Origin: Candidatus Jordarchaeia archaeon
GTDB lineage: Archaea; Asgardarchaeota; Jordiarchaeia; Jordiarchaeales; Jordiarchaeaceae
Reading direction: 5' to 3'
Assembly (NCBI GenBank): GCA_029856435.1
Contig: JAHQXB010000142.1
Span: 1-16,952, forward strand
Length of the DNA stretch: 16,952 nt
A program made the translations under genes and the position numbers. Position 1 is the stretch's first letter. Each line of letters starts with the position of its first letter. The notes beneath the pieces were generated by a model. The model ran no database searches, was not told where the DNA came from, and worked only from the letters and a program-made list of their open reading frames with translations. This document shows, piece after piece, positions 193-9,043 of the stretch.

Positions 193-1185
193 CTATGATA
201 TTTTGGCTCTCAGTTTCAGAGGTTTTCCCAGAGATTTGTCATATACGAAAAGTAGATCACCCGAGGCAAGATCCATATCTTCAATTTTTGTATCGTCTTC
301 AACAAACCTAGTTTTGTGGATAACCCTAATAGGAGCAACTAATCCTAAAGTTGCAGTAAGACGGTTTTTTAGTTCTCGAATAGTTTCTTTTTTGTCAATT
401 GCATATTCTATCCCTTCCAATCTGTATTCGTCACTACAGATGATACATTTAGGGTTCCTTTCGAGTTTGATTGTGGTGAAGCTTTGGCTTAACCCATCAT
501 AAAATAGATAATTGTCAATCAGCGTAGGTAAATCTAGTAATATTTTGATGGTTTCTTGCGCTTGAATGCCACTGAGGACAGCGCTAATTGTTGAAACTCC
601 GGGGAACTTTGGAGGTTCAACATTTTCCCTCTTCTTCCCCGGGGGTGTACACGATTTTTGGAATCTTTCACGCGGGAGAAGAGGTTGACATTCAAGGCAG
701 GGAGTCCGGTAGGGTATTATGACCTGAATGTTGCCGTACCATCCATACATCCCCCCATGCACTAAAGGTTTTTTTAAACCAACACATAATGAGTTCAGCC
801 AACGTCTAGCCTCGAAGGTATCAAGTCCGTCTACAATTACGTCACTTTCCTCAAAATATTTACGGGGGACTTCAGTCAAATTTTTACTCAGATCTACAAT
901 GTGGATACTCGGATTAATCTCTCTAAGTTTTTGTGCGGCTATTTTGGCTTTAAATTCGCCAATATCTTTTTCAGTAAATAAAAGCTGGCGATTGAGATTA
1001 GATAATTCAATTGTATCCATATCTACCAGTATTAATTTTCCTATACCCATTAATGATAGGAAAACTGCAACCATCGAACCTAATGCGCCAACTCCTGCTA
1101 TGAGTACTGTAGATTGCTGTATTTTCCCCTGATTCCACCCTTCAAGTATTTCCTGCCGATGATACCTACCTTCAACTTTTTCCAA
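193..1185 (-). CDS. Ubiquitin-activating enzyme E1-like protein (ThiF/MoeB/UBA fold with C-terminal ubiquitin-fold domain)
   Basis: Motifs RYHRQ, GVGALGS (nucleotide binding), DxDxIELSNLNRQ, two Zn-type CxxC pairs (CLEC, CIIC) and a candidate catalytic Cys in KSCT. The C-terminal ~70 aa has a beta-grasp pattern. Start moved from the ORF-track position 1251, which overlaps the E2 gene, to TTG at 1185, preceded by an SD-like GTGAGG (330 aa). Confidence 0.92.
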   Translation of the reverse strand: MEKVEGRYHRQEILEGWNQGKIQQSTVLIAGVGALGSMVAVFLSLMGIGKLILVDMDTIELSNLNRQLLFTEKDIGEFKAKIAAQKLREINPSIHIVDLSKNLTEVPRKYFEESDVIVDGLDTFEARRWLNSLCVGLKKPLVHGGMYGWYGNIQVIIPYRTPCLECQPLLPRERFQKSCTPPGKKRENVEPPKFPGVSTISAVLSGIQAQETIKILLDLPTLIDNYLFYDGLSQSFTTIKLERNPKCIICSDEYRLEGIEYAIDKKETIRELKNRLTATLGLVAPIRVIHKTRFVEDDTKIEDMDLASGDLLFVYDKSLGKPLKLRAKIS

Positions 1186-1229
1186 GGTTAATTCCTCACA
1201 AAAAGTAAGGTACGACAGTAAAAAAAGGA

Positions 1230-1688
1230 TTACTTTTTGAGACGGTCCCAAGTAGCATACTTTTTAACGTATTCTTTTGCGGTCTTACTGAATTCCTCCA
1301 GATTCCTATTCATTTGTCTGGCTGCTTCCGTATTAAGGGGAGAGTTAGGATTTGGGTAATTAAGAAGATTCCTTAAAGTCTCTACAACGCCTGCCATGCT
1401 CATAGTGGGTAGCCAGTCCTTGCCAAGAATATTTACACACACATTTTTTTGAAATATATTGGGATGCCAAATGTTCGTTTTCCAAATTACTTTTGGAGGT
1501 TCGTAGGGGAATTTTCTTGGAAGTATTATCTCTATCTCAAATACCCCTCCATCGTATATTCCCGTGCCTATAATAAATCCAGCCCACCTTCTCAAATCGC
1601 CATCAACTGGATGAAAGGATGGTTCCTCTTCTTCCATTATTTTAGCTTCTTGTACTAGTCTTGACTCATATTCCTCATCTGATAGTAT
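1230..1688 (-). CDS. Ubiquitin-conjugating enzyme E2 (UBC fold)
   Basis: Motifs YDGGVF, FPYEPPKV, WHPNI...VC (HPN plus catalytic Cys), DWLPTMS and PNPNSPLN. The frame stays open upstream of ATG 1637 and encodes the otherwise missing helix 1 (LSDEEYESRLVQEAKIM). The start is placed tentatively at ATA 1688, 7 nt after GGTGG. The product call is firm and the start is uncertain. Confidence 0.9.
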   Translation of the reverse strand: MLSDEEYESRLVQEAKIMEEEEPSFHPVDGDLRRWAGFIIGTGIYDGGVFEIEIILPRKFPYEPPKVIWKTNIWHPNIFQKNVCVNILGKDWLPTMSMAGVVETLRNLLNYPNPNSPLNTEAARQMNRNLEEFSKTAKEYVKKYATWDRLKK

Positions 1689-1773
1689 CTTGATCCCACC
1701 AATACACTTGCCTTTTTTAAGCAGATACTAACCCCTAAGGGGAGGAGTTAACTTATACAGTATCTATTTTGAA

Positions 1774-1792
1774 TTATAAGTTTAAAAATATA
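1774..1792 (-). promoter_or_regulatory. Candidate internal promoter for E2-E1
   Basis: The minus strand reads ATATATTTTTAAACTTATAA in an AT-rich patch about 90 nt upstream of the proposed E2 start. Confidence 0.3.
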
Positions 1793-1980
1793 TTTGGGGA
1801 GACAAACGCGGTCTAGTGTTTTAAAAATAGCAACTTAAGGTTGAGGCTTTTTGTGGGGTATTAAAACTGCTTCTATTTAGAAAGTTTGTTAGCTTGAGAA
1901 ACTCCCAACAGTTAACGTTAAAGAAAAACTATTAAACCCATCATTCCTCAAAAAACAACCACACACATACATTGTGTAGT

Positions 1981-2179
1981 GCAGCCGACTCCTCAGCACG
2001 GAATGCGGGAAGTTCGAAAAAGCCCAAAAAGAGGGCAGGGTCACAACCGGGAACATCCCCCACCGAAAACAGAGGAGATGTGCCTGCCTCAACCGTTCCC
2101 CGGGCGAAAGCCTCCCCATGAAACTTGAGGGAGGAAGACCCAAAGTTACGCAAAGTTAACGGGGGGTCAGAACGGTTAC
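1981..2179 (+). ncRNA. Candidate structured non-coding RNA, family unassigned
   Basis: About 57% GC over 1981-2180 versus about 32% at 1861-1920, with no credible protein. The ends pair: 1983-1987 with 2173-2177 and 1988-1994 with 2161-2167, with G.U pairs valid on + only. Nested stems are 2031-2039/2083-2090, 2053-2057/2077-2081, a GGC-GAAA-GCC hairpin at 2103-2112, and 2111-2116/2129-2134. Loops are A-rich or GNRA-like on +. A TATA-like CTATTAAA lies at 1929-1936. Confidence 0.45.
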
Positions 2180-2409
2180 CCTCCCTCTGTGCGTGTAACT
2201 AGGTATAGTTTGTCATAGGGTTGGACGCCGGCTTTTCCTAATGTGGTACCATCTTCAAGTTGTTGCCCTCTATATACTAAGATTAAAGTGGAAGCGGGAA
2301 CTCTTTTTTTCTTAGCTACCTGAGACTTTAGAGTCTCTATTTCGGTATCTTCACTTACATCAAACTCTAAAACTTCGCCACCAATTGCAGAAACTATCTT
2401 CACTATCAT
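2176..2409 (-). CDS. Ubiquitin-like modifier (77 aa, C-terminal GG)
   Basis: Collinear with ubiquitin at a +1 offset: DTEIETLK, LVYRGQQLEDGTTL (ubiquitin LIFAGKQLEDGRTL), LYLVTRTEGG-stop. SD-like GGTGA upstream. Neighbours are E1, E2 and RING genes. Confidence 0.93.
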   Translation of the reverse strand: MIVKIVSAIGGEVLEFDVSEDTEIETLKSQVAKKKRVPASTLILVYRGQQLEDGTTLGKAGVQPYDKLYLVTRTEGG

Positions 2410-2416
2410 TTTGTTC

Positions 2417-2668
2417 TCACCATTTTCTAACTTCTCTAATGTTTAGTGGTTTTCCACAATTAGGGCAGAAGCCCTTTATCTTCAACCACTCCAAAAGATG
2501 GTCGCGATGTGCTGGGAGCCCGCAAAAAGGACAATAAACTACCCTTTCTTCCTCTTTCACTTTTAAATTACACACGATACACTTTGCACTCCTAGTCCAA
2601 TCCCAAGTACCTACCACCTTGACATCGGTTATTATAAATCTGTCGGAACCGGCTCCCTGCACTTGCAC
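2417..2668 (-). CDS. Small RING-finger protein (putative E3 ligase), Rbx1/Apc11-like
   Basis: Ligand pattern C30-x2-C33-x12-C46-x2-C49-x4-H54-x2-H57-x10-C68-x2-C71, with EWLK..CP. GTG start after GAGGT. Ends 7 bp before the ubiquitin start. Confidence 0.88.
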   Translation of the reverse strand: MQVQGAGSDRFIITDVKVVGTWDWTRSAKCIVCNLKVKEEERVVYCPFCGLPAHRDHLLEWLKIKGFCPNCGKPLNIREVRKW

Positions 2669-2705
2669 TTACCTCTCTATGTTTATCTATATCTAGCATT
2701 TTTCC

Positions 2706-2720
2706 AATTATAATTTTTTT
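2706..2720 (-). promoter_or_regulatory. Candidate BRE/TATA promoter of the RING-ubiquitin unit
   Basis: The minus strand reads AAAAAAA-TTATAATT about 40 nt upstream of the GTG at 2668. Position and sequence only. Confidence 0.35.
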
Positions 2721-2734
2721 GATTCAGACATTCA

Positions 2735-2843
2735 GGTGATGTAAAATCGTTCGATTTCGCCTCAAAAAGGGGGGTGTTTATAGGGCTTCTTTCACGATTT
2801 GAAGCTTTATTAGGGAGATGGAATCGAATAAATCTGCATCACC
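2735..2843. mobile_element. MITE (109 bp, non-autonomous) with IS1-like terminal inverted repeats and 10-bp target-site duplication
   Basis: Left end GGTGATGTAAAATCGTTCGAT (2735-2755) versus the reverse complement of the right end GGTGATGCAGATTTATTCGAT (2823-2843): 16/21 identical. A perfect direct repeat CAGACATTCA abuts both ends (2725-2734 and 2844-2853). No ORF inside. Confidence 0.8.
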
Positions 2844-3209
2844 CAGACATTCAAATGCGAGGTGAGATTTGTATATTTTGTTATTTGGCCGTGTAGATTT
2901 TCCCAACTTCTCTTGTTATTTTTAACTTGGGAAAAGTTTGTACCTCCTGTAAATATTTAAAATTAGGAGTCTACTCCCTTTCCAAAAGCGAGTCTTCTAC
3001 TTAGGGCTTATTTTTAAAAATTTTAGCTATAAACTTGTTTATTAAACTATTCTTGTAGATTCCCTAAAGAAGCTTGTTCACATCATAGATTATTATTACT
3101 CCTAAAGGTGTTTTTAATTGAAATCCTTACACTTTGGGCAAGACTTTTAGCTTTCCTATGATATACTTAATTTATCCAGATAAAACACAATTCCTTTGAG
3201 GGCTGGCAT

Positions 3210-3665
3210 TTGTCAGAAGAAAAAGAGAAAGTTAAAATTCAGATTGAGGCCATCAAAACACCGGCGGGTGAGGTTCCCACAGTGGAATCTTTGAAAAGGG
3301 TGGTAGACGGTTTAAACACCCTAAATTCTGACATAGTAAATCTAAGTATGAATGTAGCAAGTAACATGTCTGCCATAGATAAAGAGCTCAGAAATATCCG
3401 TAAACTAGTTGCGGAGGGAACAGTTTCCATTGAAGTTATGTCACAGAAACTGGAGAAGGTTAGTAAACAGTTAGAGGCGTTAGTCAAAAGTGAAAAAGAG
3501 AAATGGGAAACACTCCAAGGAATTATGATGGACATAGCTGAAATTATAAAGGGTTTTCAAACCACACTTGAAGAGTCCTCATCAAGGGTGGACCAGAGAA
3601 TAAGTGAAACTCTCAAAGCCCTCGCAGAAATAATTGCCGTTTCTGCGAAAGAGGAACAAAAATAA
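3210..3665 (+). CDS. Hypothetical coiled-coil protein (151 aa)
   Basis: TTG start after a GAGGG SD-like motif. Heptad-rich helical sequence (e.g. MSQKLEKVSKQLEALVKSEKEKWETLQ). No TM segment or signal peptide evident. Confidence 0.8.
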   Translation: MSEEKEKVKIQIEAIKTPAGEVPTVESLKRVVDGLNTLNSDIVNLSMNVASNMSAIDKELRNIRKLVAEGTVSIEVMSQKLEKVSKQLEALVKSEKEKWETLQGIMMDIAEIIKGFQTTLEESSSRVDQRISETLKALAEIIAVSAKEEQK

Positions 3666-4049: not shown

Positions 4050-5831
4050 TTACTCGATTGAAAGTTGGGGCTCTTTCCTAGTATATTTGCCTTCGCCTTC
4101 AACAGTATAGGATAGTGAAATCTCCTGTCCCGGCTCTATTCTCATAAATTTCCATGTAAGCACTAAGCCGTCGATAGTTTCAGTAACTTTTGGCGGCATT
4201 TCCTCTGGTTTCCACTCCACCAAACTGAAACCGGGGGCTACAAAGTCCTTTACTGTGACGTTTGCGATGGAAACTTCTCCGGTATTCACTATTGCCAGTG
4301 GAATTATGTGTTGTCCTGCTTTTGCGCCCGGAGATATAGCCTCTTTGTATATTCTTACAGCGCGTCGAGTATATTTGATTCCAATTTTTGGAGGGTTTGT
4401 TTCCAGCTCCAAGTATTCTACATTGGGTCCTGGTGATGTTGTGTTTGCCGTTGCTCTTAGTGGGGTTGTATAGTTCTTCTCAGGCTTTGGCTCCCAAGCC
4501 ATAATGGGGTAAACAAATTTTACATACTGTCCGGGATTTAATCCACCCACAAAGTTTTTCAGGTTCCTGACAAAAACCGTGAATCCGTGTCTTGTTGCAG
4601 GATTATCGTCGTTGGGATTGGTTATGATTTCTATGCCTTGAGATAACTCCTTTTCATTTACATAAACTTTTACGCGTTCATGTGCTGGGGGTTTGAAGTC
4701 TTCTGGAATGGTGTCGTAGATTGTTACCTGATCCAGCTGGGCGCTGCCAACATTTGACACTTGTACCGTTACAGTCATAGGTGTTTTGTCGTAGGCATCA
4801 ACTTGGGGCGGGGTGAATGTTTTCTCAACCAGAATCCTCTCCACTGGTAGTATAGTGTCCTCCTTTGTAATCTTGGCATATACGTGTCGTGTTACCTCTT
4901 TAACCACTTTGTAATCGACGTTTGTTTCAAAAACTGGGATTGTAGGACTTTTTATGCTAAATTTGTATTCCCAAGATTGCCTTGGTGGAATATCCTTGTT
5001 GGGCTCCAGAACAAGGAGTGGCTCCTTCTTTTCTCCTTTTATTTGGAAGACTTCCACTTTGAGAAGCCTTTGCAGAAATTCGCTGGTGTTCATAAATTCG
5101 AGTGTGCAATCCCAAGTTGATGGTTGGCTGGGGGATTCTGCCGGTTCCAGCGCAAATCTGCTGTCAGAAACAGAAATAATGTCAGGATTGAGGAGCGATC
5201 TGGTTCTATCCTTAATGTGGTACTCTGCGATAACTTTGCCCGCAGCAATTGGGTCTATGGACTCTGCGGTAACGCTAAATTTAACGACTAGTGATGCTTC
5301 ACTTCCCGGAGATAGTTCGAAGTTCTTCCATACAACTTCCCTCGTTTCAGGTTCAAATTCTGCGGTTCCCGTGTTAGGCGGTTCTATTTCTGGATCTCCA
5401 AAACCCTTCGGTATGAACTTTCTAACCTTTACCCTGTCTATGTACGCGTCTGTGGGGTTACTAACCGTTATAGTGCTACTCACGGGCATGGGTCTACGGT
5501 AGACCAGCGCCCAGTTAACTATATCATCTTCGTAGCAGGTGTCTATTACTTCCTTCAATTTAAGTACTGTTTCCTCAACAGGTACGCTATACTCCATAGT
5601 CCATTTTTTGCCTGCCTGTACTGCACCAACTGGTATGACACTCTCCTTCAAGGAAGTGGTTTCGATGCCTCCTAATCGAAGCTCAGCATTCCATATTCTA
5701 TTCTTCGAACTATTGTTGTTTACGGAAATGACGCCTTTTACATTTAGACTTTTGATTTCATGTTTCTCTGTGATAACGCAATCAACGTTCTCAGTTACAT
5801 CCACATTAAGTTTTATTCCTTCTGCGCTCAC
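4050..5831 (-). CDS. Mu-adaptin homology domain (MHD)-like protein with additional Ig-like (DUF11-type) domains
   Basis: The N-terminus LNVDVTENVDCVI...VKGVISV...ELRLG and the segment GTAEFEPETREVVWK...PGSEASLVVKF resemble the mu1/mu2 C-terminal domain. Two further beta-sandwich repeats follow (VTVQVSNVG...IYDTIP; LAIVNTG...VKDFV...LTWK...IEPGQ). No signal peptide. CDS certain, annotation moderate. Confidence 0.7.
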   Translation of the reverse strand: MSAEGIKLNVDVTENVDCVITEKHEIKSLNVKGVISVNNNSSKNRIWNAELRLGGIETTSLKESVIPVGAVQAGKKWTMEYSVPVEETVLKLKEVIDTCYEDDIVNWALVYRRPMPVSSTITVSNPTDAYIDRVKVRKFIPKGFGDPEIEPPNTGTAEFEPETREVVWKNFELSPGSEASLVVKFSVTAESIDPIAAGKVIAEYHIKDRTRSLLNPDIISVSDSRFALEPAESPSQPSTWDCTLEFMNTSEFLQRLLKVEVFQIKGEKKEPLLVLEPNKDIPPRQSWEYKFSIKSPTIPVFETNVDYKVVKEVTRHVYAKITKEDTILPVERILVEKTFTPPQVDAYDKTPMTVTVQVSNVGSAQLDQVTIYDTIPEDFKPPAHERVKVYVNEKELSQGIEIITNPNDDNPATRHGFTVFVRNLKNFVGGLNPGQYVKFVYPIMAWEPKPEKNYTTPLRATANTTSPGPNVEYLELETNPPKIGIKYTRRAVRIYKEAISPGAKAGQHIIPLAIVNTGEVSIANVTVKDFVAPGFSLVEWKPEEMPPKVTETIDGLVLTWKFMRIEPGQEISLSYTVEGEGKYTRKEPQLSIE

Positions 5832-5979
5832 AGCCTTTCCCTCGCCTAATTATTTAGGCGCAACCATTTTCTATATTATTACTTATCTTATTACACTTCG
5901 ACATTCTTTAACCTTTTTACTTGCACTCAAAATTGGTTTTTTGATTGTGTGTTGGCGCTTGAATTCTACTTTTTAGATT

Positions 5980-6669
5980 CTAACTTATACTAAACTCTGT
6001 TCCTGCTAGCCATTCTACTCTTATTTCATCACCTGGCTTCATTTTCCTGAAATTGGTTTTGGGAGCTACGGTTTGGGCATGGGTAAAGAAGTAGTCTATT
6101 TCATGCTCGGTTTTAATATGCATGGGTATGGCCAGCTGTGGTTTAATGTCTGCGATGGCGTTTAGTGATTGGCTACTGTTAAAGGCTTCTGTTTCGTCTA
6201 CTCCAATAAGCAAAACATCGATTGGATACTGTTCTAATAGTCCCTTAGTCATGGCATCCCCGAGGTTTGCTACTCGCACTTTGTCTATTTCTACTATGAA
6301 GCATAGATTGGGGGTGTTAATTGGCTCTCTGGATGGGCCGTGCCTAAGTTCCAGAGCTGTTATTTTTATGTTAGGTCTCTCAAAGGTTTCTCCGCTTTGT
6401 ATTTTCCTTACAAGCCATTCCGGCGCGCCTTCCTTTAGGGCTACTTTGATAGTTTGCTCGTCCCCCAGCAGGAATGCCTTTTGTTTTGCGGAAAGTTGGG
6501 CGGCGTTACCCAAATGATCCCTATGCTCATGCGATACACAGATAATATTTGTTTTTTCAGACTCGGGCACCAATGCTTTATTACTCACTATACCTGGATC
6601 GAAAATAACGCTGACCTTAGGCGAGTAGAATTTGAATGCCGCGTGGCCAAAGTACTTTAATACTGGCAT
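5980..6669 (-). CDS. Metallo-beta-lactamase-fold metal-dependent hydrolase (UPF0173/UlaG-like)
   Basis: Motifs YFGHAAF, IFDPG, HEHRDH (HxHxDH), LGDA and terminal IPMH. The start is placed at ATG 6669 (GGTGA 7 nt upstream) rather than 6708. Confidence 0.9.
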   Translation of the reverse strand: MPVLKYFGHAAFKFYSPKVSVIFDPGIVSNKALVPESEKTNIICVSHEHRDHLGNAAQLSAKQKAFLLGDEQTIKVALKEGAPEWLVRKIQSGETFERPNIKITALELRHGPSREPINTPNLCFIVEIDKVRVANLGDAMTKGLLEQYPIDVLLIGVDETEAFNSSQSLNAIADIKPQLAIPMHIKTEHEIDYFFTHAQTVAPKTNFRKMKPGDEIRVEWLAGTEFSIS

Positions 6670-7111
6670 ATCCAAATCACCAATTTTCATATTCGGTAAT
6701 ATCATCAAAAGGTTAGGCTTTTCGCATAATTTTTTGAGTGCTTAAAAACAATGATTGAAGTTTGTCATTAATTATGATAAGAAAATTGGCTGTATTTCTA
6801 GGTTTTGGTTACCTAAAAGATACATAGTATACAATTATTTTTTTATCTGAGTTCTCGACAAGAAAATTTTTAGTTTGCATGAGAAAAGTTTGTTTGGGCC
6901 TTAAAATTAGGTCTGTGGTCTGAATTCTTCAAATTCATTTCCTCATCTATGGTGTTCGTAGTGGAAAAATAAGTCTCCATAAAAAAGCCTCTCCGGGGAG
7001 GATAAATCAAACGAAGCAGTACCGCTTCTTAAAAGTTGCTGGGAAGAAATAAATAGCTTTAGGTTGAATATTCTATACGAGTTCTGATATTTTTCTCGTG
7101 GTGAAAATACC

Positions 7112-7678
7112 TTGGGAGAAAAATATGGCAAACCACCGAATGAGCCATTAGACACTCTGTCTCTGGATGAAAGGTTTGACAAGGTCGAAGAAGTTACAAT
7201 AATTGAACTTGAAGAACTAGCTGATGCCTTAGAGTTCCTTTTAGACTTGCAGCCGCATGTCTGCGCAATCAGAGGCAGCGACTACCCCTGTATACTCTGC
7301 GAAAATAAATGTGATGTCGGACAGTGCAAAGAAGTAAAGGTTATGCGTGGAAAAGGCCAAAAAACAGTTAACAGCTCCCTACTATCCCTCAACTTTGAAA
7401 AGAGAGATGCCTTCGAAGAATACCTGATTAGTAAACTGGTTCGAGAACTGGTTCGGGAGAAACTTAACGTTATGAACCCTGAGGAAGGTTACGACATAAC
7501 ATTCTTCTTTAAACAGGAAGACCGTTGGAGAAAAGACGAGATTATAGTCTTCATACTAGGACTGTTTGATAAAGTGAAAACACTGATGCCAGAAGCTAAA
7601 GCGGTAATAAACACTTGGATAAGAAACAAAGTAAAAGCCTTTGAAAGAGATGAAACCCTTAAAAAAATGAAAGAATAG
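7112..7678 (+). CDS. Hypothetical protein with Cys cluster (188 aa)
   Basis: TTG start 8 nt after GGTGA and a protein-like composition. Cluster H-x-C-x8-C-x2-C-x3-C-x4-C. Confidence 0.78.
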   Translation: MGEKYGKPPNEPLDTLSLDERFDKVEEVTIIELEELADALEFLLDLQPHVCAIRGSDYPCILCENKCDVGQCKEVKVMRGKGQKTVNSSLLSLNFEKRDAFEEYLISKLVRELVREKLNVMNPEEGYDITFFFKQEDRWRKDEIIVFILGLFDKVKTLMPEAKAVINTWIRNKVKAFERDETLKKMKE

Positions 7679-7801
7679 TGGAGTTTTCCCACGAACGGCA
7701 TTTTCATAGTTTCTCTGTGAAGCACACTTGTCTCAATCCAAGTGACAGGTTCTCATTAATGTTTACCAAAATGTAGAAGGATTGATTTTACTAAAAGGTA
7801 T

Positions 7802-9043
7802 TTAATCCTCAGTAGGCAGTAGTTCCTCAGTCTTTCCTGTTATTGCATTTATCTGTTGTTGTATAGTTCTCATTTCTCCCCGAATTTTTGCTCTTTGGGC
7901 GGCGTACTCTGCTTTTTGTAATGCTCCAGACTGGTACCTTTTAGTAATGTAGTCCAACTGGTTCTGGAGCGAGCGCATTCTTGAATTTAAGCTTTCTAGT
8001 TCTTCACGTTTAGCAGCGTCAGTTATTAGAGACGAGGATACAGGTACTGAATGGGTAACTGTCCGGATTGTTTCAGAAGGCGTAATACCTTGACTCAGCA
8101 CTCGTGCAGCAAACTCTCTAAACTCATCTATGAATGCGTCAAACCTCTTTCTTAAGGTTGTAACCTCGGTCATTAACTTGTCAATTTGGGGGGTGTACGC
8201 AGCGGCTATAGGCTGCGGAGCTTTTGAAATATCCTCCATAGGCCTCGCTGTCAATACGGGTTTAATTCTCTCTTCACCTGATGCAACATCCGTAGAGACG
8301 CTAGGTTCCACTACTGCCTCACTAATCTTTTCCTTATCTAGTATAGCAAGGGCTTCTTTGGGCTTTGAAGGTGTAAGTATCCATCTAAAGATGTTTTTTG
8401 CTAAAACCATATTTTGCGAGGTGTTGAGTCCACCCATTATCCTATCTCTAAAAATTTCGTATGAACCTAGAGCGGCAACTCTACCATTTCCATAATTAGC
8501 AACTGCTAGGATGATGGCATCTGGAGGTTCAGCGGTTCTACTCGTAATTGCTAAGGCTTCTGCTTCTCCCACAATTTTTATGCTACAACCTGCGGAATAG
8601 CATAATTCTGTTATTCCCTCTGTGACGGGGTGATCCTTAAACTTGGTAATTTTTGGTAGGTTCTCCAAACCCAAGTTTTGTCTCTCATCAGTTACTTGGT
8701 TATTCTGAAAAGATATTCCAAAATTCTCAGCCAGCTCATTAAGATTGGTTCTCAGTCCCCGGTCACCGCCAGCATGGCTTAATAAAACTACGCCACCACC
8801 TCTGGAAACGTAATCTAAAACCGCTCGGATTTCACCCGGCTGCAGTTTAGACTGGTCTGGACAAGGGAATACCACAGCGTCAAAATCCTTCAATTTCTCT
8901 AACGTGATTGGAAAATCAACGAATCTTATACTCTGAATACCCTCAGTTTCCAGTACTCCTTTGAGTGCAGCATAACTTGTTGTAATGCGCCCACGTTCTT
9001 TCTGCGTTTCGTCAAATAGCACTCGCCACTTAATTTCAGCCAA
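7802..9043 (-). CDS. GIFT/IFT52-N-like (GldG/DUF4350-type) domain protein with C-terminal coiled coil and helical hairpin
   Basis: Motifs VLFDETQKE, ITLEKLKDFD, LDYVSRGGGVVLL..GG...TNLNELAENFGI, GRVAALGS..IF.D and NIFRW, followed by a low-complexity linker and helical C-terminus. TTG start after AGGAGG. Confidence 0.8.
   Translation of the reverse strand: MAEIKWRVLFDETQKERGRITTSYAALKGVLETEGIQSIRFVDFPITLEKLKDFDAVVFPCPDQSKLQPGEIRAVLDYVSRGGGVVLLSHAGGDRGLRTNLNELAENFGISFQNNQVTDERQNLGLENLPKITKFKDHPVTEGITELCYSAGCSIKIVGEAEALAITSRTAEPPDAIILAVANYGNGRVAALGSYEIFRDRIMGGLNTSQNMVLAKNIFRWILTPSKPKEALAILDKEKISEAVVEPSVSTDVASGEERIKPVLTARPMEDISKAPQPIAAAYTPQIDKLMTEVTTLRKRFDAFIDEFREFAARVLSQGITPSETIRTVTHSVPVSSSLITDAAKREELESLNSRMRSLQNQLDYITKRYQSGALQKAEYAAQRAKIRGEMRTIQQQINAITGKTEELLPTED

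Follow-up and report, generated by a model that had tools for sequence, protein, structure and literature searches.

The N-terminal arm of a small RING finger E3 in an Asgard ubiquitin operon, and a candidate hairpin partner encoded beside it

INTRODUCTION

What does the N-terminal arm of a small archaeal RING finger protein bind, and is it related to the strand by which Rbx1 engages a cullin? The question is raised by a gene in a 16 952-nucleotide stretch of DNA from Candidatus Jordarchaeia archaeon, the whole of which was analyzed and is termed the window below. A first-pass annotation had noted that the RING domain is preceded by a segment resembling the cullin-binding strand of Rbx1 and Apc11. 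On that basis it was suggested that the protein may be an archaeal precursor of the RING subunit of the CRL and APC ligases, and that a cullin-like scaffold would be encoded elsewhere in the genome.

In eukaryotes, control of the cell cycle and of signalling depends centrally on cullin-RING ligases and the APC/C. If the arm docks on a separate scaffold, archaea would already possess the modular arrangement of a RING with its scaffold.

Two earlier studies bear on this family. In the srfp protein of Caldiarchaeum subterraneum, mutation of I30 and W58 impaired the ubiquitin cascade, both residues being needed for activity (PMC5654768). In an alignment of Asgard RING E3s a conserved N-terminal region was recognized, named the ‘N-loop’ and modelled as a loop; a Helarchaeial E3 from which residues 1–19 had been deleted bound the UEV domain of UEV-Vps23 more weakly (reported KD values, 0.26 mM and 8 mM), and an uncharacterized neighbour gene was listed in the ubiquitin–ESCRT cluster (bioRxiv 10.1101/2023.07.25.550441). 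Thus the srfp-type gene and its conserved arm were already known, the latter from the 2023 preprint. The literature that we searched contained no paper linking the arm to Rbx1 or to cullins, and both that link and the pairing of the arm with a hairpin are put forward here as hypotheses.

RESULTS AND DISCUSSION

The RING finger protein is encoded in a ubiquitin operon

Four co-oriented genes in the order RING–Ub–E2–E1 occupy positions 193–2668 of the minus strand, with the RING gene first (Table 1). The RING protein passes the cut-off of the Pfam family model Prok-RING_1 (32.1 bits, cut-off 29.1), and falls slightly below that of zf-RING_2 (27.0 bits). Its closest homologues, at 72–78% identity, are annotated as RING finger proteins of Freyarchaeota or Jordarchaeaceae. 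Relatives at 47–51% identity occur in Lokiarchaeota/Promethearchaeota, and there are more members of the family in Helarchaeota and Atabeyarchaeum. At the other end of the operon, residues 281–336 of the E1 give a weak match to the Pfam ubiquitin model.

Table 1. Positions of the RING gene, its parts and the adjoining features in the window
Feature	Position	Strand	Basis and remarks
Small RING finger E3 gene	2417..2668	-	83 aa, GTG start, stop included; open reading frame and Pfam Prok-RING_1
N-terminal arm, residues R10–W24 (RFIITDVKVVGTWDW)	2597..2641	-	Conserved in 35 homologues; in register with the Rbx1/Apc11 strand
RING domain C30–C71, C4-H2-C2 ligands, E2-contact residues V32 and W61	2456..2581	-	Invariant ligands, model pLDDT 80–89, Foldseek
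Ubiquitin gene	2176..2409	-	77 aa, free GG end, 7 bp after the RING gene; Pfam ubiquitin 56.5 bits
Gap between Ub and E2 genes	1638..2175	.	540 bp, splits the operon; no convincing open reading frame, merely short overlapping ones
E2 (UQ_con) gene	1230..1637	-	Pfam UQ_con 113.8 bits
E1 gene (ThiF and C-terminal ubiquitin-fold tail)	193..1251	-	Pfam ThiF 215.9 bits
Neighbour gene, TPxGxVPT hairpin module and one long helix; candidate arm partner	3210..3665	+	151 aa, divergent (head-to-head) from the RING gene

Because of the operon context together with the match to the RING family, we identify the product of this gene as the srfp-type E3 already known from archaeal ubiquitin operons, and an ordinary member of its family. 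It shares with the C. subterraneum srfp (PMC5654768) and the Asgard homologues its size, its place in an operon with Ub, E2 and E1, a RING-H2-like cross-brace and the Ile/Val and Trp that contact the E2. The window differs from the srfp operons in several respects. There is no linked Rpn11/JAB gene, the ubiquitin ends in a free GG, and the operon is split by the non-coding gap. Rfam gave nothing for the whole window, and nothing for the gap region at 1600–2250 at the gathering threshold or at E ≤ 1. A GC-rich structured block in the gap had been marked by the first-pass annotation as a finding of its own. In this genus the operon also lies apart from the ESCRT cluster. The RING–Ub–E2–E1 cassette of other Asgard classes adjoins the ESCRT genes Vps4, ESCRT-II, Vps28 and UEV-Vps23, and genomes of Loki-, Atabey- and related lineages have it beside UEV-Vps23 and further ESCRT genes. 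Here contig C40 carries the operon and contig C81 the Vps23-like genes, and the divergent neighbour gene is still joined to the operon.

The RING domain, which ends HRDHLLEWLKIKGFCPNC, is held by ligands (C30, C33, C46, C49, H54, H57, C68 and C71) that are invariant in 35 homologues, so that the C4-H2-C2 order read by the first-pass annotation extends through the family. W61 is likewise invariant in the 35, and V32 is nearly so (23 homologues), the position being Val or Ile in 35/35; these residues correspond to W58 and I30 of the Caldiarchaeum srfp. A Foldseek search with the RING model, one of the comparisons with Rbx1 and Apc11 that had been proposed, did place both among its matches (Rbx1 at rank 10, Apc11 at ranks 42–44), and these stand there among generic RING domains and are not singled out from them.

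A conserved arm precedes the RING domain

The first CxxC of the RING is preceded by the segment RFIITDVKVVGTWDWTRSAKC, and the reading frame gives the residues of the arm and the RING as they had been quoted. Lack of conservation of the arm in orthologues had been named as telling against the proposed relation to Rbx1 and Apc11. Against this, the 35 homologues conserve the segment (G20 and W22, nearly invariant, at 90% or more), and it is retained across the Frey/Jord-, Loki-, Hel- and Atabeyarchaeial proteins. The Helarchaeial RING E3 belongs to the same family and has the same arm, the homologue P0017 reading KRFIIRNIITVGKWDW ahead of its first Cys. In several more distant members of the family the RF is lost and the second W is replaced by F, L or P.

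How widely is the arm distributed among RING domains? The closest relatives without it (families f5, f9, f14 and f23) have their RING at the C-terminus of longer proteins. Fifteen-residue segments were scored with a position matrix made from 11 Rbx1/Apc11 strands, and among 141 representatives of the closest RING clusters, scores above 10 were found solely in this small family. In the remaining 128 relatives nothing upstream of the first Cys scored above 9.6, and the median was about -5. The arm as a general feature of prokaryotic RING proteins was therefore rejected, since these 128 relatives lack it. In the loci L075–L079 and L085–L095 the nearest RING relatives are the C-terminal domains of proteins of 178–483 aa that have no W-containing arm, for example LKIATVDLEERC ahead of the first Cys.

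In the monomer model the arm has a pLDDT below 50 and is not packed on the RING. Its conservation, set against this low value and the confident model of the RING, makes the arm look like an element for binding a partner.

Comparison of the arm with the strand of Rbx1 and Apc11

For reference sequences we took database entries named RBX1 and ANAPC11, which were matched by the query sequences at 99–100% identity. The strand of the Apc11 sequences reads KVKIK.W.GVA.W.W, in agreement with the motif that the first-pass annotation had given. The spacing between R and the first W of WxW, stated in that annotation to be the same as in Rbx1, is indeed 12 residues in the archaeal arm and in the real Rbx1 and Apc11 sequences alike. 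The linker from WxW to the first Cys is off by one, with five residues in the RING protein and six in Rbx1/Apc11.

Could the arm then be a true homologue, or a precursor, of the cullin-binding strand, in a family ancestral to the CRL and APC RING subunits, with a diverged cullin-like or pre-cullin scaffold in Asgard archaea? The RING of the Asgard ubiquitin operon is a natural candidate for such an ancestor, and the profile comparisons provide further points in its favour. When a profile of the 35-sequence family was aligned using hhalign, the arm fell in register with the strand at 86.7% for Rbx1 and 87.7% for Apc11. Against Rbx1 and Apc11 jointly the value was 95.0% (E = 3.6e-8), over 79 columns beginning at archaeal residue 6. 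The score was 47.4 for the full-length profiles and 37.2 for those of the RING alone. In addition, the 15-mer of the window scored 25.5 with the strand matrix, placing it at about rank 9 of 1.84 million six-frame reading-frame positions in the genome.

Other comparisons go against such an ancestry. The arm profile alone aligned in register with the Rbx1/Apc11 strand at a score of 9.5 (P = 0.018), and 37 of 300 column-shuffled strands (12%) reached an equal score. When the arm profile was searched against 177 635 PDB sequences, neither Rbx1 nor Apc11 was found at E ≤ 10, the best match being an unrelated beta protein (VKFVGTWEFT). With the whole-family profile the PDB search favoured RNF24, Arkadia and EL5, and scans with the protein and the family profile returned generic RING-H2 domains first, with Rbx1/Rbx2 appearing only at E > 3. 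The family models zf-rbx1 (PF12678) and zf-ANAPC11 (PF12861) were not among the best 25 of the 35 Pfam matches (E ≤ 0.1) of the RING protein. In the genome as a whole their best matches were on contig C81, below the cut-off, with none on the RING gene of the window. The third-zinc insertion of Rbx1 is absent, appearing in hhalign as a 14-residue gap in the archaeal profile, which has the eight ligands alone. Lastly, the RF and the second W are missing from several lineages of the family.

In our view the likeness of the arm to the Rbx1/Apc11 strand is real at the level of sequence, being in register, specific to the family and above what composition would give. That of the arm taken alone appears statistically weak and the segment too short to establish homology, so this likeness is not decisive. 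Common descent of the two strands is, on these alignments, doubtful, and the fuller proposal of an archaeal precursor of the CRL/APC subunit is in our estimate unlikely. Of what was proposed, the conserved arm and its in-register alignment stand; the arm-only statistics, the two Pfam models and the missing insertion do not follow it. The comparison with Rbx1 and Apc11 favours the proposal in hhalign (86.7–95.0%), and goes against it in zf-rbx1, zf-ANAPC11 and the PDB, where other RING proteins are preferred.

The proposal further implied a cullin-like scaffold elsewhere in the genome, and this part was not borne out by searches at the level of sequence. The Pfam Cullin model has no match in the genome itself, which is 97.8% complete, and Cullin_Nedd8 gives matches there only at E = 0.35 or worse. 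Among 301 Asgard genomes drawn from the whole phylum, none had a match above the Cullin cut-off. Three weak Cullin matches in the phylum were discarded as winged-helix domains of PheRS-alpha and of a wHTH protein.

A hairpin and coiled-coil protein is encoded head to head with the RING gene

If the arm has a partner other than a cullin, where might it be encoded? One candidate is the gene divergent from the RING gene. Its homologues, 20–79% identical in an alignment of 34 sequences, keep this position beside the RING gene in Loki-, Atabey- and Frey-lineages, among others. Strong conservation is confined to the N-terminus, K.[IV].[IV]..[IV].TPxGxVPT...L..VV.GLN, within which T17, P18, G20 and P23 are invariant in the 34 sequences. 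In the AF2 model (pLDDT 84) this forms a small hairpin at residues 14–23, followed by an uninterrupted helix over residues 25–150. Searches of Pfam, the PDB and the ESM Atlas with this protein returned just coiled-coil noise and unnamed Promethearchaeota clusters.

The neighbour is present in 94 of the 301 Asgard genomes. An arm-bearing RING lies within 1.5–2 kb of it at 22 of the 30 close loci and at 12 of the 20 distant ones, and the two occur together in about 15 families. By comparison, the neighbour is absent from the four families whose RING relatives lack the arm (0/29 in f5, 0/68 in f9, 0/11 in f14 and 0/7 in f23). These counts of linkage and co-occurrence come from kin and are not independent, and are to be read as a pattern and not as a statistic.

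The association is not exclusive. In two families (f17 and f19) the neighbour stands beside an E1 with no RING, and the locus of f19 has in addition what may be a Ubl gene; inspection by eye of these RING-less lineages revealed no arm on another protein beside the neighbour. The neighbour is therefore a component of a ubiquitin-like system in its own right, not tied to the arm alone, and this counts against a docking function that is specific to the arm. A complex prediction using the RING alignment and the neighbour alignment gave 0.17 and 0.20, where the mark was set at 0.32, and counts neither for nor against a contact.

A second pair of arm-bearing RING and hairpin

A second such arrangement is found on contig C81 of the same genome. 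Here a 74-aa RING protein (zf-RING_16, 27.7 bits) has an arm, KYITLTKHFVGKWKW (ending FVGKWKW), directly ahead of its first CxxC. Its gene is divergent from that of a 463-aa AAA ATPase (PF00004, 91.7 bits), residues 8–48 of which match the hairpin module of the neighbour (hhalign 93.5%, E = 2.2e-7). This pair of RING and ATPase is kept in four genomes of the genus. The best evidence here that the arm and the hairpin work together is the existence of two independent pairs, in one of which the hairpin is carried on a different enzyme.

A proposed model for the docking of the arm

We can now suggest how these elements might fit together. The preferred reading, to which we would give a probability of about one half, is that the protein is an srfp-type E3 whose arm docks on the TPxGxVPT hairpin of the neighbour. 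It would do so on the principle by which the Rbx1 strand engages a cullin, with a non-cullin protein as the partner. The RING domain would recruit the E2~Ub of the operon through the surface formed by V32 and W61; this step is taken from the family and from the mutants published for the Caldiarchaeum homologue. The N-terminal arm of about 20 residues, probably unfolded alone, would serve as a docking strand that pairs by beta-augmentation, and its likeliest partner would be the hairpin of the head-to-head protein. The long helix of the latter could form an oligomeric coiled coil, making this protein an adaptor, a scaffold or the primary substrate. We infer the contact of arm and hairpin as a candidate pairing from the gene linkage and from the duplicated pair, and the scaffold implied by an Rbx1-like arm is more likely to be this hairpin and coiled-coil neighbour than a cullin.

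The model has features in common with Rbx1, Rbx2 and Apc11. These too are small proteins of RING-H2 type with an N-terminal hydrophobic strand, and WxW a few residues before the first CxxC, and a comparable docking of the window RING on a separate scaffold is probable. There are also differences. In addition to lacking the third-zinc insertion, the archaeal RING has C4H2C2 ligands and does not reach the Pfam models of these subunits. No cullin or Apc2 has been found to accompany it, and the candidate partner is a hairpin and coiled coil and not a cullin fold.

A different partner is indicated by the Helarchaeial E3, where the effect of deleting the arm on the binding of the UEV domain argues against docking on the hairpin. 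According to this view UEV-Vps23, of an Asgard ESCRT-I-like machinery, is a substrate that the arm recognizes as a loop, and in the same study UEV-Vps23 was ubiquitylated in vitro (10.1101/2023.07.25.550441). The arm of P0017 is that of the present family, and the position that the cassette has in Loki-, Atabey- and related genomes, next to UEV-Vps23 and further ESCRT genes, is in keeping with such a role. Yet the reported dissociation constants correspond to very weak binding. Moreover, in this genus, where the operon and the Vps23-like genes are on separate contigs, it is with the hairpin neighbour that the operon stays, and the second arm-bearing RING is paired with an AAA ATPase that bears the hairpin. 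The preprint assigns the arm to UEV-Vps23 and makes no link to Rbx1 or to the hairpin, whereas the linkage observed here points to the neighbour; we regard UEV-Vps23 as the partner of the arm in the window as quite unlikely.

Many RING E3s dimerize via flanking segments, and the arm, unpacked as it is in the monomer model, might likewise serve self-association (a RING dimer joined by a sheet between its two chains) or regulation within the molecule. The likeness to Rbx1 would then be a convergence of amphipathic Trp-rich strands, of the kind that the column-shuffle control shows to match easily. This reading would leave unexplained both the duplicated pair and the hairpin protein, to which the arm is tightly linked and with which it co-occurs across lineages, and is very improbable.

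What would docking on the hairpin mean for the origin of the eukaryotic ligases? It is conceivable, although we think it rather unlikely, that the arm of the Asgard srfp proteins and the strand of Rbx1/Apc11 share descent, that the design in which a RING is plugged by a strand into a scaffold is older than the cullins, and that the hairpin protein or its AAA-fused paralogue was a scaffold later replaced by cullins. The likeness of the arm to Rbx1 is best treated as a lead, reasonable but unproven. The pairing of arm and hairpin is a testable idea, requiring a few small recombinant proteins.

Other genes associated with the ubiquitin modules

Several further observations were made at these loci. 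The region of contig C81 at about 8.5–11.1 kb (loci L001 and L098) is a second ubiquitin-related module, in which the hairpin at the N-terminus of the ATPase reads TPxxxVPT. This module also encodes a 235-aa fusion of Peptidase_M48 with a RING, together with a protein in which UBC/RWD/UEV-like domains stand in tandem. Further along the same contig there is a JAB gene at 15.4 kb and a Vps23-like gene at 29.3 kb.

In two of the loci without a RING of this family, L059 of genome G051 (1941–3138) and L061 of genome G066 (1577–3132), an E1-like (ThiF-type) gene is overlapped at its 3′ end by the hairpin gene, which is followed in L061 by a possible Ubl gene of 103 aa. Together these loci suggest a simpler module of E1, hairpin protein and Ubl.

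Within the window itself, the region 4050–9043 encodes a protein of 593 aa that contains DUF11 and gives a weak match to adaptor mu-homology, an ARPC4-like protein of 188 aa and an IFT52-GIFT-like protein of 413 aa. The ARPC4-like, IFT52-GIFT-like and mu-homology-like genes in the rest of the window are consistent with an Asgard genome. This order of genes resembling eukaryotic signatures is retained in one related contig (L012), and in a Lokiarchaeial locus (L008) an IFT52-GIFT-like gene is found after the E1.
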